A stretch of 63,611 bases of DNA, filler included. It is 8 parts of 8 records of this genome, joined end to end, with 100 filler letters (N's around TTAATTAATTAA, not from the genome) between each part and the next. Parts side by side here need not be neighbours in the genome. Positions count along the whole stretch, not along the records: positions 34,118 to 39,367 come from SRR31156797_3337; 7 more parts are not named here. One strand, written 5' to 3'. The stretch's first letter is position 1; every line of letters begins with the position of its first letter. This document shows positions 4,019-58,221 of this stretch, piece after piece. The translations under genes and the position numbers were made by a program. Below the pieces are notes generated by a model. The model did not search any database and was not told where the DNA came from. It was given only the letters and a program-made list of their open reading frames with translations.

Positions 4019-4603
4019 ATGGAATTTGAAGACCATCCCCTTTGGAACTTTACCATTGAGGCCCATCAGCGCCCCGGTGTGCACGAAGCGTGCATGACGC
4101 TTCAGGTAAATCATGATATTGATGTGAATTTTCTGTTCTGGTGTTGTTGGGTCGGGGCGGTGGGTACACCACCCCTTGATGGAAATCAGATGCAAAGGGC
4201 CATGGATGCCGTGGGGCAATGGCAGGAGGAAATCGTCAGGCCCGTCTGGAGGGCAAGATGGAAACTGAAGCCCGTCTACGGAAACTTTTCAGAAGACTTG
4301 ACGGAACCCCTCCGCCGGCAACTCATTGCCGCCGAGCTGAATGCCGAGCACATTGAAATGCTTCACCTGGCCCATACCGTAAAAATCCGGATGGATGCAA
4401 GTGTTTCCACATGGGACAAGGCATCGCACGCAGCGTCAAATCTGAAACTTTATCTGTCCCGTCATTTTGTCCGGGAAAGTACCAAAGTAAGTTCTACGGC
4501 GCGCCAAAACCCGATTCCAAAAAATATTCAGGATCCCTTGAGCACAGTTTTATGCGCCTGTTTTCCGGAACTGAACAGGGAAGCAGTCCTGTCGCTTTTG
4601 TAA
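4019..4603 (+). CDS. TIGR02444/DUF2390 family protein
   Basis: LWNF...PGVHEACMTLQ...DVNFLFWCCW...WQEEIVRPVWRAR...ELNAEHIE pattern. Confidence 0.8.
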   Translation: MEFEDHPLWNFTIEAHQRPGVHEACMTLQVNHDIDVNFLFWCCWVGAVGTPPLDGNQMQRAMDAVGQWQEEIVRPVWRARWKLKPVYGNFSEDLTEPLRRQLIAAELNAEHIEMLHLAHTVKIRMDASVSTWDKASHAASNLKLYLSRHFVRESTKVSSTARQNPIPKNIQDPLSTVLCACFPELNREAVLSLL

Positions 4604-4629
4604 AGAAAAACTGGAGGATTCACTAGATT

Positions 4630-5451
4630 ATGAAGGGAAAACGCTGTTTTCAACCACACCTTTTGATGATCTTTATCATGGCGCTGTTTTGTGCAACACC
4701 GTCCTTTGCCGGGGTTCTTAAAATCAAAACACAAACCACTGTGCAAACCATCAATGACCGACTCCATATGACAGTGGCCCTCACAAATGAGGGGACCGCC
4801 ATCGCTTACAATCTCCAGGTTCACCTGGAACTCCTTGGGGAAACCCTTGATTCGAAACTGAAGCCACAGCTTGACCCGGCAGGATCAAGCACCTTCGTTT
4901 TTGAAAAAAGCGCTGAAGGAATCTCAGCGGGGAGATATCCCCTGACGGTCTCGGTTGTCTTTCACGACGCAAACCGATACCCCTTTTCCGCCCTTTCGGG
5001 GATGACCTTTTCCATCGGCCCCGATGTAAATTCCGACCTTGCGGTCATGGGAAAAAATATCGCCATGGATAATGGCGGGGAACTTTCCCTGAATATCAAG
5101 AATATGGGGACCGGCGAAAAGAAGATCCTGGCCACCCTCGTGCTTCCCAGGGAACTCTCAACGCCCACTCCGCAAATGAGCTTTCTTCTGAACTCCAGGT
5201 CCCGGAAGGACCTGGATTTTGAGATCCGCAATTTTTCGGCCCTTCCCGGGGCGGATTACCCGGTTTTCTGCTATTTTGAATACGACCTGGAGGACATCCA
5301 CCACACGGCGGTCTGCACGGCGGCCATCAAAATCATTGAACCGGAGAACCTGTTTCGCCGATACCGCTGGTTATGGATGGGTCTTGCGGGAATTCTCATC
5401 ATGATCCTTTTGACGCTCATCATCAAAAGTCGTATGAAGACAAAGGGATGA
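4630..5451 (+). CDS. Secreted Ig-like protein with C-terminal membrane anchor
   Basis: Signal peptide, beta-rich body, C-terminal TM helix with basic tail. Confidence 0.65.
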   Translation: MKGKRCFQPHLLMIFIMALFCATPSFAGVLKIKTQTTVQTINDRLHMTVALTNEGTAIAYNLQVHLELLGETLDSKLKPQLDPAGSSTFVFEKSAEGISAGRYPLTVSVVFHDANRYPFSALSGMTFSIGPDVNSDLAVMGKNIAMDNGGELSLNIKNMGTGEKKILATLVLPRELSTPTPQMSFLLNSRSRKDLDFEIRNFSALPGADYPVFCYFEYDLEDIHHTAVCTAAIKIIEPENLFRRYRWLWMGLAGILIMILLTLIIKSRMKTKG

Positions 5452-9842: not shown

Positions 9843-9942
9843 NNNNNNNNNNNNNNNNNNNNNNNNNNNNNNNNNNNNNNNNNNNNTTAATTAATTAANN
9901 NNNNNNNNNNNNNNNNNNNNNNNNNNNNNNNNNNNNNNNNNN
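9843..9942. other. Artificial contig linker (N44-TTAATTAATTAA-N44); same linker at 16577-16676, 21786-21885, 34018-34117, 39368-39467, 50658-50757, 57846-57945
   Basis: Identical 100-bp N spacer with six-frame stop core; GC content and gene content change across the linkers. Confidence 0.99.
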
Positions 9943-16576: not shown

Positions 16577-16836
16577 NNNNNNNNNNNNNNNNNNNNNNNN
16601 NNNNNNNNNNNNNNNNNNNNTTAATTAATTAANNNNNNNNNNNNNNNNNNNNNNNNNNNNNNNNNNNNNNNNNNNNTGATGTATTAAAAAGAAACTAAAA
16701 TTTATACAACATTTTGTTTACATCACTTTTACAGAAAATTTATATTAGAATAAAATATGTTTGATATCATGTAGCATGTACAGAATGAAAACATTTGGAT
16801 GTATAGAGTATTTAAAGTAGAGTTTTAGGAGGAAAA

Positions 16837-21730: not shown

Positions 21731-21885
21731 ATATTAGAAAAAGTATAAATTACTAATATAAATTTTAGTTTCTTTGATACATCACNNNNNNNNNNNNNNN
21801 NNNNNNNNNNNNNNNNNNNNNNNNNNNNNTTAATTAATTAANNNNNNNNNNNNNNNNNNNNNNNNNNNNNNNNNNNNNNNNNNNN

Positions 21886-34017: not shown

Positions 34018-34229
34018 NNNNNNNNNNNNNNNNNNNNNNNNNNNNNNNNNNNNNNNNNNNNTTAATTAATTAANNNNNNNNNNNNNNNNNNNNNNNNNNN
34101 NNNNNNNNNNNNNNNNNTCTGAATTCCCAAATTCGAAAGCTGTATAGCAAAAAGCAATGAGTGTAAATAGTTTTCACGTAATTACTTATAATAACAGATG
34201 CTAACGGATAGAGATTAAATGTTGGTAAC

Positions 34230-34430
34230 TTGAAAATTTTAGGTAAGGAGGTTCTTAACATGTCTGAAGAAAGAATTAACAAAGAAGTATTCATAATGGA
34301 AACAGCAGCCAAGATTTTTGCAGGTATGTTTTCAAACCATGAGAAAGACCATAACGAGAAGGTTGCAGTAGAAGAAGCGATCAACCTATGGGAAGAATTA
34401 AAAAAAGCTGAAATTATAACAGATAAGTAA
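34230..34430 (+). CDS. Small hypothetical protein (likely start at ATG 34260)
   Basis: AAGGAGG RBS before MSEERIN. Confidence 0.55.
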   Translation: MKILGKEVLNMSEERINKEVFIMETAAKIFAGMFSNHEKDHNEKVAVEEAINLWEELKKAEIITDK

Positions 34431-34711
34431 ATGAAGGAATGATGTGTCCTAAACAAGGCTAAATTGAGCATATCTTTCGTTTAGTACTAATTATATCAGG
34501 CGAAAAACACTATCCAAGCAGGCTAACAGATTGATAGCCACCAGTGAAAACGTCATGAAATACCCACCATATGAAATAGATGTGAAAGATTTTTCCTCAT
34601 CGAAAAAGTTGTATGTTAGGCCATGAGGTAGCTTAAACCTGTTGCGGTGACAGGCTTTGCATAATTTTTGAGTAACCAGTACTAGCCACACCGTAGTAGT
34701 GTTTCAATGTT

Positions 34712-34753
34712 AGGGCAAATTACCTAAGTAAAATTAGGTGGTTTGCCCTTTTT
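34712..34753 (+). terminator. Terminator-like hairpin
   Basis: AGGGCAAATTACCTAA/TTAGGTGGTTTGCCCT followed by a T-tract. Confidence 0.65.
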
Positions 34754-34850
34754 ATTTGTTGAAATCATCGTATACTGGCAAGAAAGTTTGATTAAGTCAT
34801 TTGAGCCGAGTGTGATAAAAACTCTAAAATAATATAATTGGGAGAAAAGA

Positions 34851-35213
34851 ATGAACGTTGAAGTTATTTTAAGAGAGGCGTTTCTCGCAGAAGCACAAAG
34901 AAGAAATGTTATTATTTCGCAAGCTGAATTGGAAAATATAAGCAAGAAATTTAATATAGCCGCTGTGCAAAGAACTGTAGATTTAGATATTGAAAGATTG
35001 AGGGCTCAATATCTAGGAATGCCAGCGACGATGGCAAGGGAAATTAAAATTCGTGAAAGATATCACCAGTCTAACCTTCGAAAATTAGCTCAAGATTATG
35101 CCATCCTTTTAGCAAGGCAACGGATTCAATATTTGACAGAATCAAAAGCTAGTGAAATGCGTACTATGCTTAAAGCGTCAGCGGGTAAACCGTGTGATGC
35201 TTACCCATGCTGA
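34851..35213 (+). CDS. Hypothetical protein
   Basis: GGAG RBS, 120-aa ORF. Confidence 0.6.
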   Translation: MNVEVILREAFLAEAQRRNVIISQAELENISKKFNIAAVQRTVDLDIERLRAQYLGMPATMAREIKIRERYHQSNLRKLAQDYAILLARQRIQYLTESKASEMRTMLKASAGKPCDAYPC

Positions 35214-35220
35214 GGTGCCC

Positions 35221-35697
35221 ATGGAAAAGGAAGATGAGCTCCGTGTCAAAGCGGCTGAGTTTCTAATTGAATCTCTAAAAATGATGGTAACTATTTCGAT
35301 GCTGTTTGTTGGTGGAATTGTTGCTTATGGTGGATATATTGGATTTAGTTTTAACTGTAAATATTTTTATGTAAGTGTATCGATGCTTGTGCTTGCATCG
35401 CTATTTTCAGTATTCAATATTAACTCTATAATTAATAAAATTTATGCAGGAGTTACTGAGGCGATAAGGGTTACTGAAGTTAGGGTTATAAATTTAATAA
35501 GTATTTTAACTTTAATAGTTGGTATCTTTTTTGGAGTCTATTCTGTTATTGACGCAAGAGATTCTGTTTCTGGTGATTTAAACGGGGGGAAATCTATTGT
35601 GATTTCCGATGATGAGGTATTGGTTGATGGTAACCCATTATCTCATGTGAAAATTGTTAAGAAGGAAGGAGAGGTGGTATTAATTGAAATGAAATGA
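35221..35697 (+). CDS. Hypothetical membrane protein (about 3 TM)
   Basis: GAGG RBS before MEKEDE; hydrophobic helices. Confidence 0.7.
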   Translation: MEKEDELRVKAAEFLIESLKMMVTISMLFVGGIVAYGGYIGFSFNCKYFYVSVSMLVLASLFSVFNINSIINKIYAGVTEAIRVTEVRVINLISILTLIVGIFFGVYSVIDARDSVSGDLNGGKSIVISDDEVLVDGNPLSHVKIVKKEGEVVLIEMK

Positions 35698-35720
35698 TTT
35701 TTGAAAATGGGGACATAAAT

Positions 35721-35770
35721 ATTTAACAATCAATCTACCACCGAATAAATCGGTGATTTTTACGTACGGT
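35721..35770 (+). repeat. Mini attC-like site 1 (degenerate)
   Basis: ATTTAAC...CACCGA-ATAAA-TCGGTG...GTACGGT; same core as 37686-37733 and 39067-39114. Confidence 0.55.
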
Positions 35771-35796
35771 ATAGCAGCAACAAACGAGGAATAGAA

Positions 35797-36033
35797 ATGT
35801 ATGTAATGACAGGTGATGGCCATTGGATTCAAGAAGTAAAAGAAAATGGCAAAATAATAATCCTGGAAGACGGATCAAGGTGGGAAGTTTCCTCTCTTGA
35901 CAGAATCGATTCAAGCTTGTGGCTACCAGTTTCTAACGTAACAGTACTAGATGGTGATCATCCTTTATACGAATACAAGCTAGTAAACACGGATGATAAT
36001 GAAGTTATAGATGTAAAATATCTCGGCGGCTAA
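35797..36033 (+). CDS. Small beta-rich hypothetical cassette protein
   Basis: GAGG RBS; II.LEDGSRW...WLP pattern. Confidence 0.7.
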   Translation: MYVMTGDGHWIQEVKENGKIIILEDGSRWEVSSLDRIDSSLWLPVSNVTVLDGDHPLYEYKLVNTDDNEVIDVKYLGG

Positions 36034-36184
36034 CTGCAAGTTAATGAAAAAAACGGGGACAAGTCTTTGTTTGACTCTTCTCGGATAGCGGTTGGGTAGG
36101 AGTTGATAGATAGTTTCAGACTCCGCACTTCTTTGTGCTTTTAATTAACATAACGTGTTAACTATTTGTTGACAGTTGCTTCGT

Positions 36185-36520
36185 ATGGATATAACATTCA
36201 AGACAAGAAAGTTACAAAAAATATGTTCAAAAAGCGTTGAGTCAATCAAGCAATTGGGCCATAAAGGCGGAGTCAAGTTACAGCAAAGGATGATGGAGCT
36301 GGCCGCTGCCCCGAATTTGTCTCATATCTCAAGGCTTCCTCCGCCTCGTTGCCACGAATTGAAAGGTAACAAAAAAAGGCAGCTCTCAATTGATCTAGAT
36401 CACCCTTACAGGCTTCTTTTTATTGTAGCTAATAACCCTATCCCCTCGCATGAGGATGGAGGGTTGGACTGGGAAAAAGTTACTGCGATAGAAATCGTCG
36501 GAATTGAAGACACTCACTAG
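36185..36520 (+). CDS. higB: HigB-like (RelE/ParE fold) toxin
   Basis: PPPRCHELKG....SIDL.HPYRLLF...IEDTH; upstream of an HTH antitoxin. Confidence 0.85.
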   Translation: MDITFKTRKLQKICSKSVESIKQLGHKGGVKLQQRMMELAAAPNLSHISRLPPPRCHELKGNKKRQLSIDLDHPYRLLFIVANNPIPSHEDGGLDWEKVTAIEIVGIEDTH

Positions 36521-36529
36521 GGGGTTAAT

Positions 36530-37612
36530 ATGGCATCGAAAAATACAAAATCATATTCGTTTGAACCTGATTACGCTATTGCTCCTGGTGTGACTTTATT
36601 GGAAGTAATAGATCACTTAGGAATGACTCAGAAAGAATTGGCCTTGCGAACCCAATTAACGGTTCAGTCTGTAAATAGGATAATAAAAGGTGAGCAACCA
36701 ATATCCTACGAGACTGCAAATCGGTTGGAGTTGGCTACTAATGTTTCCGCTGAAATGTGGAATAATCTTGAGTCGCAATACCGGGAACAATTAGCAAAAA
36801 TAAGAGAGAAAGAACGATTAGAATCAGATCTTGAATGGCTACGTTTAATTCCTGTGAAGGAGTTGATCGAAAGAGAATTAATAAAGGCTTGTGACAATAA
36901 AGTGGAGCAGGTCCGTGAAGCATTAAAGTTTTATGGGGTGAGTAGCGCTGATGCTTGGGGTGAAATATGGGAAAAACCAGCATTGGCAGCAAGAAGGTCA
37001 ACTTGTTTTGAATCGCGTCCAGGCGCTGCATCAGCATGGATAAGAATTGGTGAGCTTGCGGCTCAGCAAGTTAGATGTGCTGATTTTGACAAAAAGCAAT
37101 TTCAAGAAGCGCTAAAAGTAATACGGTCCTTGACGGTTGAGGCGCCGGAAGTCTTTATTCCAAAAATGATCAAGGTTTGTGCTGATGCAGGGGTTGCTGT
37201 AGTGTTGGTGCCTAGGTTAAATAAGGTGCCATGGTCAGGGGCAACAAAATGGATTTCGCCAAATAAAGCAATGATACTGCTTTCTATTAGAGGAAAGTAT
37301 GAAGATTTATTTTGGTTTTCTTTCTTCCATGAAGCGGGCCATGTTTTGCGTGACAGCAAAAAGGATTTGTTGATTAACGATGGCACAAGAACTGATCCAA
37401 GAGAAGTTCGAGCTGATGAGTTTGCGGCAAACTACCTTATTCCTGAAAAGCATAACGGTGTCATCGGAAATATAAAAAGCAGGCCAGAGCTTCTTGGGAT
37501 TGCGCGTGAATTAGGCGTGTCTCCAGGGATAGTCGTCGGACGTTTTCATCATTTAACGCAACGGTGGAAACTGTTTAATGGGCTCAAGAAAAAATTTATG
37601 TGGGTTAGTTGA
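36530..37612 (+). CDS. higA: HigA antitoxin fused to an ImmA/IrrE-like metallopeptidase domain
   Basis: APG..L.E....GMTQKELA HTH, WNNLE..Y, FWFSFFHEAGH (HExxH), E..ADEFA. Confidence 0.9.
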   Translation: MASKNTKSYSFEPDYAIAPGVTLLEVIDHLGMTQKELALRTQLTVQSVNRIIKGEQPISYETANRLELATNVSAEMWNNLESQYREQLAKIREKERLESDLEWLRLIPVKELIERELIKACDNKVEQVREALKFYGVSSADAWGEIWEKPALAARRSTCFESRPGAASAWIRIGELAAQQVRCADFDKKQFQEALKVIRSLTVEAPEVFIPKMIKVCADAGVAVVLVPRLNKVPWSGATKWISPNKAMILLSIRGKYEDLFWFSFFHEAGHVLRDSKKDLLINDGTRTDPREVRADEFAANYLIPEKHNGVIGNIKSRPELLGIARELGVSPGIVVGRFHHLTQRWKLFNGLKKKFMWVS

Positions 37613-37622
37613 GAAAGAGCGA

Positions 37623-37733
37623 AGGCTCAGCTCTTTGCTTGACCCTTCTTAGGACTAATTAGGGGCGGACCACAGTTCTTTCATTCCACAACAAGATGGT
37701 GCACCGGATAAATCGGTGATCAACATATTGTGA
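37623..37733 (+). repeat. 111-bp intergenic repeat copy 1, ending in a 48-bp mini attC-like hairpin (37686-37733)
   Basis: Aligns without gaps to 39004-39114 (about 70% identity by manual count). Confidence 0.8.
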
Positions 37734-37751
37734 CAAAAAAGGAGTAATCTC

Positions 37752-37970
37752 ATGGCAATGTTACCTCAATCATTAGAAGCATTAGCCCAAATGGGCGCAA
37801 ACATTGAATTAACCGCTGAAGCTAAATATTTACCAGACACTGTAGAAAAAATTCTTCATATTGCTAAACAAAACGGTTCACATGTTACCATCGAAGCCGG
37901 TAATTACCTGCCTGATACTTTGAAAAAATTTGTTATTATTGCGCAAGAGAACATAACGATAAGAGTTTAA
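37752..37970 (+). CDS. Small hypothetical cassette protein with internal repeat
   Basis: AGGAG RBS; YLPDT(V/L) repeated. Confidence 0.7.
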   Translation: MAMLPQSLEALAQMGANIELTAEAKYLPDTVEKILHIAKQNGSHVTIEAGNYLPDTLKKFVIIAQENITIRV

Positions 37971-37986
37971 CAAAAGGCCAGCAAAA

Positions 37987-38241
37987 ATGATTATTCACGA
38001 AGGGCAACTGAAAGGGGCATTTAAAGGGTTTAAAAATCGAGATACTGATTTCGAATTTTTTGGTGGACCAAAATTTCAGCAAAACGAATACAAATATCAT
38101 TATCACTATGCATACATGCCGAGAGCAAAGGTGGTGCAAAATGGTGGTAGGTACTTTCTCCATGTTGAAGGGGTAAACGACCCTGTAGAAGCGAATAATA
38201 GGGGACGTACCACGATAAATGTAAAGCTAGAGTGCCAATGA
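37987..38241 (+). CDS. Hypothetical protein, possibly 3'-rearranged
   Basis: G.FKGF...F.F..G...Q.EYKY.YHYAYMP pattern; last codons run through a GGGGAC motif. Confidence 0.55.
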   Translation: MIIHEGQLKGAFKGFKNRDTDFEFFGGPKFQQNEYKYHYHYAYMPRAKVVQNGGRYFLHVEGVNDPVEANNRGRTTINVKLECQ

Positions 38242-38414
38242 CAAATACCGTTACTCCCTAATAGGTCGTTTGCCACATGTTTGCCACCCCTGTCGCAAAC
38301 CCTGATATACATTAAGGGGGCAAGGGTTCAACTCCCGGCGTCCCTGTCATTTTATGCGAAACAAAATTACCGATAAACAGAAAAAGTTTTATTAAAATAA
38401 TAACAAATAAACTG

Positions 38415-38545
38415 AATCACACAGATGCTCAAGAGGGACGGCAAGAGGCTATGCTGTTTGCCAAAATCAAAGTTGAACCAAAACTTACAAATATTAAATC
38501 ATTTTCGGGGTAGTTCATTCGCCGCCCCTTAGATAAATGTTATAT
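38415..38545 (+). repeat. attC site resembling Vibrio VCR (R'' box degenerate)
   Basis: GCTCAAGAGGGACGGC...GCCGCCCCTTAGATAAATGTTATAT; complementary L boxes, GTT R' box just before the next gene. Confidence 0.75.
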
Positions 38546-38569
38546 TTAAGAACAAAAAGGAAGATAATA

Positions 38570-38989
38570 ATGAAGAAAGCAATATTGATTTTACTATTTA
38601 TTACATTTTGTCAAAATGCCTTGGCTTACGATGGGACACCTGAAGATCAAGTCGATCTCTTTTTTAAAGATATAGCTTCTGGGAATACCAATGTTGCAAT
38701 TGATAATCTGTATTCCTCCAACCCTTTAATGAGCCAGAAAATCCAACAATTAACAATGCTCAAGCAACAAGTTGGTATGATTAACTCTTTGTTCGGAAAA
38801 ACAATTGAATTTGAAACCTATACAGTAGAAAAATTTACTGACTCAATTAAACGAATTGTAAAAATACAAAAATGTGAAAATCATCCTATCGTATGGGAAT
38901 TTTATTTTTACAAACCAAAAGATAAATGGATGATAAGTAAAGGCACCTTCAATGATCAATTTAGTAACATATCTAAAAAACAAAAATGA
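38570..38989 (+). CDS. Secreted hypothetical cassette protein
   Basis: Signal peptide MKKAILILL...ALA; begins just after the attC. Confidence 0.75.
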   Translation: MKKAILILLFITFCQNALAYDGTPEDQVDLFFKDIASGNTNVAIDNLYSSNPLMSQKIQQLTMLKQQVGMINSLFGKTIEFETYTVEKFTDSIKRIVKIQKCENHPIVWEFYFYKPKDKWMISKGTFNDQFSNISKKQK

Positions 38990-39003
38990 TTCATGAGGAA
39001 CGT

Positions 39004-39114
39004 GGGGTCAGGTCTTTGCTTGGCTCTTCTCGATGCTAATTAGGAGCAGCCCGCCCTCATTTCGTTTCCCAAAAAGATAATGCACCGGATAAACCGGTGG
39101 CCAGCATGTTAGGC
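39004..39114 (+). repeat. 111-bp intergenic repeat copy 2, ending in a 48-bp mini attC-like hairpin (39067-39114)
   Basis: GGGGTCAGGTCTTTGCTTGG...TGCACCGG-ATAAA-CCGGTGGCC-AGCAT-GTTAGGC (GTTRRRY). Confidence 0.8.
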
Positions 39115-39136
39115 TTATAAAAAGACTTCTGATTTC

Positions 39137-39367
39137 ATGGAAGAAAATGCAATTAACAAAGCATTTCAAATGCAAAAAAAAAGATCAAGAATAATTAAAT
39201 TATTTCTTTTCTTTTTGCCTGTGAGTTGCTTGTTACTTGTATTAATACCAAGAAACCCAATAACACCTTTGATGCTAGTATTATATGGCTTTTATTCTGG
39301 TTACCTTTGGTGGACGTTCCTTTTTTCATTATGTCCAAATTGTAAACATATATTTGTTTTAAGCTGG
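39137..39367 (+). CDS. Membrane protein with CPNC motif, 3'-truncated
   Basis: Two TM segments then LCPNCK; follows the mini attC. Confidence 0.6.
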
Positions 39368-39468
39368 NNNNNNNNNNNNNNNNNNNNNNNNNNNNNNNNN
39401 NNNNNNNNNNNTTAATTAATTAANNNNNNNNNNNNNNNNNNNNNNNNNNNNNNNNNNNNNNNNNNNNG

Positions 39469-50309: not shown

Positions 50310-50889
50310 TTTGTAAAATAATATGATAATTCCGAAAAACATTTTGAAAATTTTGGAGAAGTGTAATTCTTATTGGATATTCAGAGCCAAGACTGATTTA
50401 AGCAATGGGCTGGCTTCTGCTTATTGGATGGAGTACCGAGTGAGGAAGTTTGGGCATTGTTGAAGGGCTGGCTGCGGGAGGGAGGACCGCACAGCCGCCT
50501 TGTCGGGCTAGTCTCGCTTGAGCTATTTGGGGCTCCACTCAACTAACCACTCCAAGGCGGCTTCCGTTTACCCACAACTTTTACACAGGTGAGTACACCT
50601 ATGCAAAAGCTATGGATAAACCTTTTGACAGTACTGACGCACGAGTATGAAGATCCGNNNNNNNNNNNNNNNNNNNNNNNNNNNNNNNNNNNNNNNNNNN
50701 NTTAATTAATTAANNNNNNNNNNNNNNNNNNNNNNNNNNNNNNNNNNNNNNNNNNNNCTTCGTAGCTCGAAGAGCGAAGTAGGGTTCGATATTCATTATT
50801 CAAATGGATCTATTTATAAAGAATTTCTTACATAATAAAAAAACCACCTCTCAATGAAAGGTGGTTTAATTATGGAAAATATCTAAATA

Positions 50890-57845: not shown

Positions 57846-58221
57846 NNNNNNNNNNNNNNNNNNNNNNNNNNNNNNNNNNNNNNNNNNNNTTAATTAATTA
57901 ANNNNNNNNNNNNNNNNNNNNNNNNNNNNNNNNNNNNNNNNNNNNTTTTTAAGTCAAATTGATTCGTTTTGACTTTGAGCTATAAAAAATTCTATATTTT
58001 TTAATTTCAATCTAATAAACTCAATATTTTTGATAATATACTTAAATTCTAACAAAGAAATTTCACTAAAGCAAAGAATTTGAAGTAAATATTGAGTAAA
58101 ATATTGATTTTTAGCCGAACTTCGTATACAATGTGTACTGAGTTTTCCTTTTATTATTGATAAAAGAGCTTTACATAATAGTCAAAAAATTAAAATATAG
58201 AATTTTGAAAGGAGTCATTCA

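Follow-up and report, generated by a model that had tools for sequence, protein, structure and literature searches.

GGGG-tagged repeats at gene ends and attC sites as probable end repeats of two TIRtron families from the Desulfobulbales

The 63,611-nucleotide stretch of DNA analysed here (the window) consists of several contigs joined end to end, and in one of these, 5.25 kb long, small open reading frames (ORFs) are followed by short sequences beginning with GGGG(A/T)C, some of them fused to sites that resemble the attC sites of integron cassettes. Judged by sequence comparison, the GGGG(A/T)C sequences are end repeats of TIRtrons, a class of small element whose gene codes for a RAYT- or TIRYT-type Y1 (HUH) tyrosine transposase; they represent a known kind of repeat in an unusual place, and they belong to two families (A and B) found in the order Desulfobulbales. 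The copies in the window are probably solo, partly decayed terminal inverted repeats of these two families that travel with the attC sites as passengers. A preliminary description of this DNA had proposed an HUH/Y1 REP-associated signal that delimits modules; the first half of that proposal was borne out, in that A and B flank Y1 genes in related genomes and carry the tag GGGGWSAS, and nothing was found to show that the signal delimits modules.

Three related genomes were screened in full (G001, Desulfogranum marinum DSM 2058; G002, a Desulfobulbaceae metagenome-assembled genome; and G003, Desulfobulbus rhabdoformis DSM 8777), and a wider sample comprised 151 genomes from the order of G001 (Desulfobulbales).

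Repeats and attC-like sites in one contig

All five of the strings originally quoted as following gene ends were present in the contig: GGGGAC at 35709, 36055 and 38201, GGGGTC at 39004, and a decayed form, AGGCTCAGC, at 37623. The bare hexamer GGGGWC was not enriched across the window as a whole (29 copies against 50.1 expected); within the contig, its four copies all lay on the plus strand and fell in four of the five ORF-stop windows (-45 to +25). Among 2000 mononucleotide shuffles, none of these windows was hit in 1830, one was hit in 168 and two were hit in 2, and the number never rose above two. Since the shuffles reached a maximum of two windows against the four observed, the placement of the hexamer relative to genes is not random, and the proposed location of the motif at gene 3' ends thus held when set against random placement. 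Longer patterns gave a similar result: the 19-mer GGGGWCANGTCTTTGNTTG, allowing up to three mismatches, occurred three times against 0.37 expected (none of 100 shuffles gave three copies), and the hairpin CACCGNATAAANCGGTG (CACCG.ATAAA.CGGTG) occurred three times against 0.10 expected.

The idea of a single motif at all five sites did not survive comparison with other genomes, which split the sites into two repeat families. Family A reads GGGGTCARGTCTTTGCTTGRCTC and accounts for the sites at 36055, 37623 (where the tip is decayed) and 39004. Family B reads AATAGGGGAC(GT/AG)ACCACG, in the form AATAATAGGGGACGTACCACGAT or ...GGGGACAGACCACGTT, and is represented by the copy that spans 38201 and by the truncated tip at 35709, as well as by decayed copies inside two longer repeats (Table 1). 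The latter are the two 111-bp segments previously reported to align without gaps at about 70% identity, which a repeat search and an in-register comparison placed at 37617-37729 and 38998-39110, likewise ungapped and with 73% identity. This 111-bp repeat is composed of a family-A repeat, a decayed family-B repeat and a 48-nt attC-like site (a 'mini' attC). Two of the assignments to family B were made by eye: that of the 35709 tip by reference to the B-attC units of G003, and that of the decayed copy in the first 111-bp repeat by reference to the AATTAGGGGACAGACCACGTT variant of contig G001:C66.

Within the window, the repeats lie 10-22 nt past a stop codon, with the tip facing the ORF, and upstream of an attC-like hairpin; it is the motif and not the attC that comes next after the stop codon, as had been stated. 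An A- or B-like tag was found upstream of, and in the same orientation as, each of 12 mini attC sites (three in the window, seven in G003 and two in G001), although two of the 12 tags were badly decayed and were judged by eye. Units attached to unrelated ORFs resembled one another over their whole length, spacers included: the two A-attC units of G003 were near-identical to each other, as were its four B-attC units among themselves, and the pair in the window is that described above. In every pair of units the similarity began 5-8 nt before the GGGG and stopped at G|TTA of the attC. These shared edges indicate that the tip of the repeat is a true junction, and that at its opposite end the unit stops where integron crossover ordinarily takes place.

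The component modules were observed in the combinations A-C, B-C and A-B'-C (where C is the mini attC), and A or B was also found with no mini attC downstream. In contig G001:C22 an A repeat is followed by a fragment resembling the 3' end of transfer-messenger RNA (tmRNA), and at 38200-38352 of the window a B repeat is followed by a like fragment. The B repeat in the window also encodes the last residues (...NNRGRTTINVKLECQ) and the stop region of the 84-aa ORF at 37987-38241, and a tiny ORF in G001:C25 has identical C-terminal residues that are likewise encoded by the repeat; in such cases the ends of ORFs have probably been reshaped by repeat insertion. A full-text search, outside which most subscription journals lie, found no report in which repeats of the TIRYT or REP kind are joined to attC sites.

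Repeats and transposase genes in related genomes

A scan of one genome per species with an 18-mer pattern returned mostly chance matches, and among the matches listed only loci of the Desulfobulbales type extended beyond the 18-mer, sharing 27-42 nt with the copies in the window. A 27-mer for family A (up to three mismatches) was found 10 times in G001, 16 times in G002 and 5 times in G003, and never with a reversed-pattern control; across the wider sample it was found in 31 of the 151 genomes, with a control of 0 among the genomes listed. In contigs G003:C198 and G002:C3, inverted A copies lie on both sides of an ORF of approximately 330-340 aa that encodes a Y1 protein, and the right-hand copy encodes the last residues of that protein. 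The A elements carry terminal inverted repeats of 27-36 nt, and the A-type protein combines a Y1_Tnp domain with a Bac_DnaA_C domain and has homologues in 110 of the 151 genomes. Among the seven best full-length matches to it (58-62% identity), six had motif A at an end of the gene, and at three of these (G009:C14, G068:C56 and G106:C78) inverted A pairs lay 1009 bp apart; the remaining one of the seven, G105:C33, showed no motif A within three mismatches. Contig G009:C14 contains seven A copies (three left ends and four right ends) among small ORFs that surround one intact Y1 gene, and attached to its additional A copies are remnants of the transposase gene, a sign that they are truncated insertions rather than boundaries of cargo. 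In G002:C56 (locus L005, 2001-2107 and 2563-2670), two 107-bp inverted A doublets with perfect arms of approximately 30 nt were observed in opposite orientations with one small gene between them, a shape like that of a REPIN or a MITE.

Matches to the B pattern were present in 66 of the 151 genomes, with a control of 0-3 per genome, so that low counts are to be read as noise; high counts were reached in G027 (52 copies), G001 (28), G026 (27) and six more genomes (14-18 each). The B copies occur as inverted doublets approximately 45 bp apart and as pairs approximately 770-790 bp apart. In G001:C66, a direct reading of the flanks placed a Y1 gene encoding 230 aa between inverted B-like copies, and B copies flank or adjoin at least 8 of 11 full-length matches to this protein, drawn from five genomes; the three matches that lack B are those with 52% identity. 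The B-type gene is present in four copies in G140 and in many in G027, some of them with stops, and on the basis of these copies the family looks like an active insertion element. A third Y1 gene, in G002:C64 (locus L161, approximately 4411-5430), encodes 339 aa with a helix-turn-helix (HTH) tail of the sigma-70 region 4 type, and is flanked by repeats beginning GGGACG...TAATTGACTA.GTTGACAAAC that are direct, not inverted, copies.

The class of the transposases was examined with domain profiles. Y1_Tnp scored 43-55 bits (cut-off 23), Bac_DnaA_C scored 34.7 and 46.1 bits (cut-off 31.5) in two A-type proteins, and the B-type protein contained Y1_Tnp only; the translated Y1 genes contain NHYH and YIHRNP, corresponding to the HUH motif and the catalytic tyrosine. 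For all four proteins the best NCBIfam model was NF047646 (REP_Tyr_transpos), at 65.7-78.9 bits overall and 76.8-78.9 bits for the A type. Membership in IS200/IS605 was rejected, with NF033573 at 16-24 bits (16-18 for the A type) against a cut-off of 55, and with terminal inverted repeats at the ends of the elements, where IS200-type elements have subterminal hairpins and lack inverted repeats.

Elements of this kind have been described by Di Nocera et al. (2013; PMC3733652), where RAYT-like genes with long inverted repeats, and not REPs, on their flanks are termed TIRtrons and their enzymes TIRYTs; many TIRYT repeats share GGGGWSAS, and some families are moderately abundant, as singles, dimers and clusters. 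The same text describes the action of TIRYTs on their own repeats as untested in general, and its main text contains no occurrence of 'Desulf'. According to Quentin et al. (2018; PMC6006769), 20 of the 26 TIRYTs of Di Nocera et al. fall in subclass 2.1, with Bac_DnaA_C, HTH_23 or HTH_28 tails, and the flanking consensus is quoted as GGGG[AT][CG]A[CG]. Compared with GGGGWSAS, the A copy at 39004 (GGGGTCAG) matches at 8 of 8 positions and that at 36055 (GGGGACAA) at 7 of 8, and that at 37623 is decayed; in the related genomes the tag consensus is GGGGTCAA/G and GGGGACAG. The elements found here resemble TIRtrons in having a RAYT-like Y1/HUH gene, inverted GGGGWSAS repeats, a 3' repeat that overlaps the end of the gene, an A-type C-terminal HTH of the Bac_DnaA_C type, and moderately numerous further repeats at a distance from the gene, single, paired or clustered. 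They differ in that the B-type protein lacks an HTH tail, and in that the window holds solo copies only, fused in one direction to integron attC sites.

Both families are dispersed in the related genomes as singles, inverted doublets and clusters, and a comparison with REP/REPIN-RAYT systems is also apt: short repeats are tied to a cognate Y1 gene and lie between genes at gene 3' ends, inverted doublets occur approximately 45-100 bp apart (G001:C66 and G002:C56), and REP_Tyr_transpos is the best NCBIfam model. In contrast to those systems, the tag here is GGGG and not GTAG or CGTC, the copies number 5-16 (A) or up to 52 (B) per genome and not hundreds, and the B-type genes are multi-copy, some with stops, and are more like those of an insertion sequence (IS) than like a domesticated single-copy RAYT. 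A REPtron in the sense of a GTAG- or CGTC-tagged palindrome of 20-40 bp in high copy does not agree with the GGGG tag, the modest copy numbers and the folds of the window copies, which do not exceed those of shuffles. The 38-bp inverted repeats of Tn3-type elements also start with GGGG, and that identification was dropped after the repeats were seen around Y1 genes of approximately 1 kb.

Elements that adjoin attC sites are known from two other systems. The IS1111-attC elements and group IIC-attC introns are complete elements with their own enzyme, inserted inside an attC. The repeats described here share with them the fixed orientation of a non-integron mobile element next to an attC hairpin, but consist only of an end repeat of 20-30 nt, which precedes the attC and is passed on together with it. 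BIMEs (bacterial interspersed mosaic elements) are mosaic intergenic blocks at gene 3' ends that are built from varied short repeat motifs, and the blocks at gene 3' ends here are likewise mosaics in which motifs are variously combined; they differ in that one piece of the mosaic is an integron attC and that the REP-type pieces bear the TIRYT tag.

Origin and role of the fused repeats

If the repeats are passengers, the end of a TIRtron would have landed beside an ancestral attC, probably through single-strand transposition near an extruded hairpin, and would then have lost its transposase gene. The end and the attC may since have been copied together, either as the 3' module joined new ORFs or as cassettes were homogenised, with the cassettes themselves presumably moving by the ordinary IntI/attC route at G|TT and the repeats being carried along, possibly to be reused as hairpins at mRNA 3' ends. 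The motif itself is a TIRtron end repeat and not a new signal. What is new is the recognition of two well-supported Desulfobulbales TIRtron families with cognate Y1 genes (one with a DnaA-type tail, the other multi-copy and active-looking), and the indication that the conserved 3' module of integron cassettes can come to include a TIRtron end as a permanent component. The latter is relevant when attC sites and the limits of cassettes are annotated in environmental integrons, since the conserved block extends beyond the attC.

Several observations weigh against this account. The copy number of A is low (1-16 per genome), the REP_Tyr_transpos scores fall just below the 80-bit cut-off, and the B tip at 38201 (GGGGACGT) fits GGGGWSAS at 6 of 8 positions only. 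The gene-flanking A repeats, as single-stranded DNA, form an 8-bp hairpin of -5.0 kcal/mol (equalled by 10 and 3 of 200 shuffles), whereas the A copies in the window reach -1.6, -4.7 and -0.1 kcal/mol, which does not surpass their shuffles, and may be inert. There is no Y1 gene within the window, so the link to a transposase is drawn from other genomes; inspection of the repeat tips by eye revealed neither a target duplication nor a conserved target, and insertion is for that reason deduced only indirectly. The order of events, with insertion first and co-propagation after, would follow from the whole-length homology of the units only. Finally, the covariation in the mini attC sites lies within the range of shuffles, 79 of 500 of which reach it.

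It might be argued that selection has kept the motifs as RNA 3' elements (terminators or stabilising hairpins), their likeness to transposon ends being a matter of history or of convergence. Such an interpretation fits their location 10-22 nt past stop codons, on the coding strand throughout, as well as the observation, made by eye, that A/G variation at two stem positions of family A preserves G-T/G-U pairing on the plus strand only; a part in termination and in the stability of mRNA is ascribed to REP-type repeats in PMC3733652. We nonetheless consider it unlikely. A scan for terminator-like sites found 4 against 3.5 expected, with none at motif A and with the two matches in the units corresponding to the mini attC hairpins; the A copies of the window fold no better than shuffles; and convergence would leave unexplained the 27-42 nt of homology to gene-flanking repeats. 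A role in RNA is moreover compatible with repeats that arose as TIRtron ends, to which it would add a reuse.

Alternatively, the repeats could be live ends of a second mobilisation system, in which the GGGG tip is the site of action of a Y1 transposase that mobilises the repeat with its attC, or whole cassettes. The coincidence of the repeat tip with the 5' edge of units shared by unrelated cassettes, the varied combination of A, B and hairpin modules, the three left-end and four right-end A copies among the small ORFs of G009:C14 around one intact Y1 gene, and the multi-copy B-type elements of G140 and G027, which point to a family active in the order, would all accord with such a system. Set against these are the facts that no cassette was seen between two inverted repeats, that the window contains solo copies in a single orientation with eroded hairpins and no Y1 gene, that the extra A copies of G009 bear transposase stubs and are truncated insertions, and that neither the 151 genomes nor the metagenome scans yielded a genome pair differing at a motif breakpoint; a live system of this sort is accordingly held to be very improbable. 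The searches for such breakpoints included a comparison of the contig with the 151 genomes, which returned the long attC and distant higBA homologues that were free of the motif and, at 63-66% nucleotide identity, too distant to be used for mapping breakpoints. Metagenome scans with the HigA-like protein gave 33 pattern matches and no confirmed relatives, and with the A-B' junction pattern gave no matches. The earlier suggestion that genes here are shuffled by a system acting on the motif finds no support in the solo copies, in their eroded hairpins, or in the 3' edge of every shared unit, which is the G|TTA of the attC, the usual integron boundary.

A related possibility, to which we assign a slightly smaller chance again, is that the TIRtron end and attC together act as a delivery vehicle: a Y1/HUH enzyme would nick the GGGG tip and, in a one-ended event on a single strand, place the adjoining attC behind a gene that had none, thereby making a cassette. 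This would explain the association at 12 of 12 sites, the start of the units at the tip, and the 10-22 nt spacing after unrelated stop codons, and if true would supply one route to the unexplained birth of integron cassettes.

Least credible of all is the proposal that the attC is unusually long and that the GGGG block extends it functionally at the 5' side, being needed by IntI or an accessory factor, so that the whole 111-bp repeat would serve as the recombination site. This would suit a block that immediately precedes the attC-like hairpin, with matching orientation, in 12 of 12 cases and is conserved jointly with it, and it has some precedent in the long, homogeneous attC sites of chromosomal integrons. 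It is contradicted by a 5' block with no complementary partner in the 3' half, and by a fold of 38990-39136 that lacks long-range pairing for the 39004 unit and does not exceed shuffles (z of -0.57 on the plus and -0.76 on the minus strand, in an analysis of four intergenic regions on both strands). Also against it are the occurrence of the block at sites remote from attC, where it forms the ends of Y1 genes or, in G002, doublets, and the variable combination of A, B and hairpin, including A or B with no mini attC.

Contig, attC sites and neighbouring features

The window is not one array: it comprises eight unrelated contigs separated by seven linkers, with GC contents of 52, 50, 32, 64, 38, 34, 40 and 31%, in order, and probably represents a draft assembly or bin, of mixed origin, whose pieces were concatenated. 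Features that lie across the N linkers are thus unsafe to read as an array, and because the finding lies within a single contig of the chain, statements about an 'array' are limited to that contig (Table 1).

Table 1. Coordinates of the contig and of its repeats, attC-like sites and paired genes, numbered along the window
Feature	Position	Strand	Context
Linkers, N44-TTAATTAATTAA-N44	9843-9942, 16577-16676, 21786-21885, 34018-34117, 39368-39467, 50658-50757, 57846-57945		between contigs
Contig with the whole finding	34118..39367		5250 bp, 37.5% GC; linkers 34018-34117 and 39368-39467 on either side
Truncated family-B tip (GGGGACAT...AAAT)	35709..35722	+	12 nt past stop of ORF 35152..35697
Decayed mini attC-like site	35721..35770	+	R''-like ATTTAAC, hairpin 35739-35755, R'-like GTACGGT
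Family-A solo repeat (GGGGACAAGTCTTTGTTTGACTCTTCT)	36055..36081	+	22 nt past stop of ORF 35797..36033; not followed by a mini attC
higBA pair	36176-37612		HigB-like ORF of 114 aa, then HTH_3 + Peptidase_M78 (IrrE-type) ORF of 360 aa (HigA-like, 36530..37612)
Family-A solo repeat, decayed tip (AGGCTCAG...)	37623..37649	+	11 nt past stop of HigA-like ORF 36530..37612
Decayed family-B copy (CTAATTAGGGGCGGACCACAG)	37655..37675	+	between A and mini attC
Mini attC-like site	37686..37733	+	R''-like CCACAAC, hairpin 37702-37718, R'-like ATTGTGA
Family-B repeat (AATAATAGGGGACGTACCACGAT)	38194..38216	+	0 mismatches to B pattern; within end of ORF 37987..38241
Classical long attC	38416..38544	+	...CAAGAGGGACGGC...GCCGCCCCTTAG...GTTATAT
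Family-A solo repeat (GGGGTCAGGTCTTTGCTTGGCTCTTCT)	39004..39030	+	15 nt past stop of ORF 38537..38989
Decayed family-B copy (CTAATTAGGAGCAGCCCGCC)	39036..39055	+	in-register homologue of 37655-37675
Mini attC	39067..39114	+	hairpin 39083-39099; canonical R' core GTTAGGC 39108-39114; likeness to the 37623 unit ends at GTT

The attC partners of the repeats are of two types. The long attC shares 88-89% identity with two sites of G020, which lie 1.2 kb from each other, and with G123, and aligns with the attC beside the IntI gene of G001:C88, where the similarity stops right after GTTA. IntI matches above cut-off (TIGR02249) were found in G001:C88 (433 bits) and G003:C165 (376 bits), in genomes in which the same attC types are present, and G002 yielded no TIGR02249 match above cut-off. 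The best mini attC, from G003, has the form ATCCAAC-AA-GATAAT(A)CACCGG-loop-CCGGTGATTATC-GC-GTTAGGC, in which the R'' and R' cores (RYYYAAC and GTTRRRY in attC sites generally) can be recognised, together with a brief spacer that stays unpaired and a single bulged base. Across the 12 copies, 74.7% of cells were paired against 21-43% in slid controls, and it is plausible that the mini hairpin is a folded attC. The mini attC pattern matched 17 times in G003 (control 1), in clusters on C131 and C188, and 3 times in G001 (control 1); the canonical R' core is found in the window only at the last of the three mini sites, the other two being decayed.

Further elements were noted in or near the cassette arrays of the related genomes. 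Domains of group II introns (RF02001, 131 bits; RF01998, 59 bits) lie in or beside cassette arrays of G003, on the minus strand of loci L152 (5937-6288) and L156 (1083-1434), and a repeat after the first cassette beside IntI in G001:C88 recurs at the end of G001:C25 and may be an intron or an IS at an attC.

The small ORFs of the contig lie on the plus strand. In a Pfam scan of the contig ORFs, the HigB-like ORF reached 19.7 bits with PF05015, under the cut-off, and the remaining scanned ORFs matched no Pfam family save for a weak, sub-cut-off KHA (17.6 bits). A sigma-70-like, promoter-like site for higBA lies at 36169-36197, and higBA homologues occur in at least 11 genomes of the order, with the repeats absent nearby. 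The contig had no match in a plasmid collection.

The segment that follows the family-B repeat, at 38278-38352 (GTCGTTTGCCAC..., then GGGGGCAAGGGTTCAACTCCC), has what we take to be a likeness to the 3' end of tmRNA, and with the B tip it can form a 7-bp acceptor-like helix (GGGGACG/CGTCCCT); its relatives occur in G001:C22 (one of them ending ...CTCCACCA) and in G003, and it may be the remnant of an old attachment site. A tRNA- or tmRNA-like RNA starting from the B motif (38200-38352) was considered and rejected: ARAGORN called none in the contig or the related loci, and neither did Rfam, which was applied to the related loci at its gathering threshold. The apparent acceptor pairing and the T-arm-like GGGTTCAACTCCC are genuine in the sequence, and the 5' part of the structure is the B repeat. 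For the contig as a whole, Rfam at E<=5 returned spurious microRNA and small nucleolar RNA matches only, and ARAGORN none.

Near the start of the contig, a 250-bp stretch at 34519-34767 shares 75-77% identity with G001:C22:66613-66855 and with G001:C215 as a shared non-coding element, and it contains a strong, terminator-like hairpin at 34712-34749, with 16 pairs followed by a T run.

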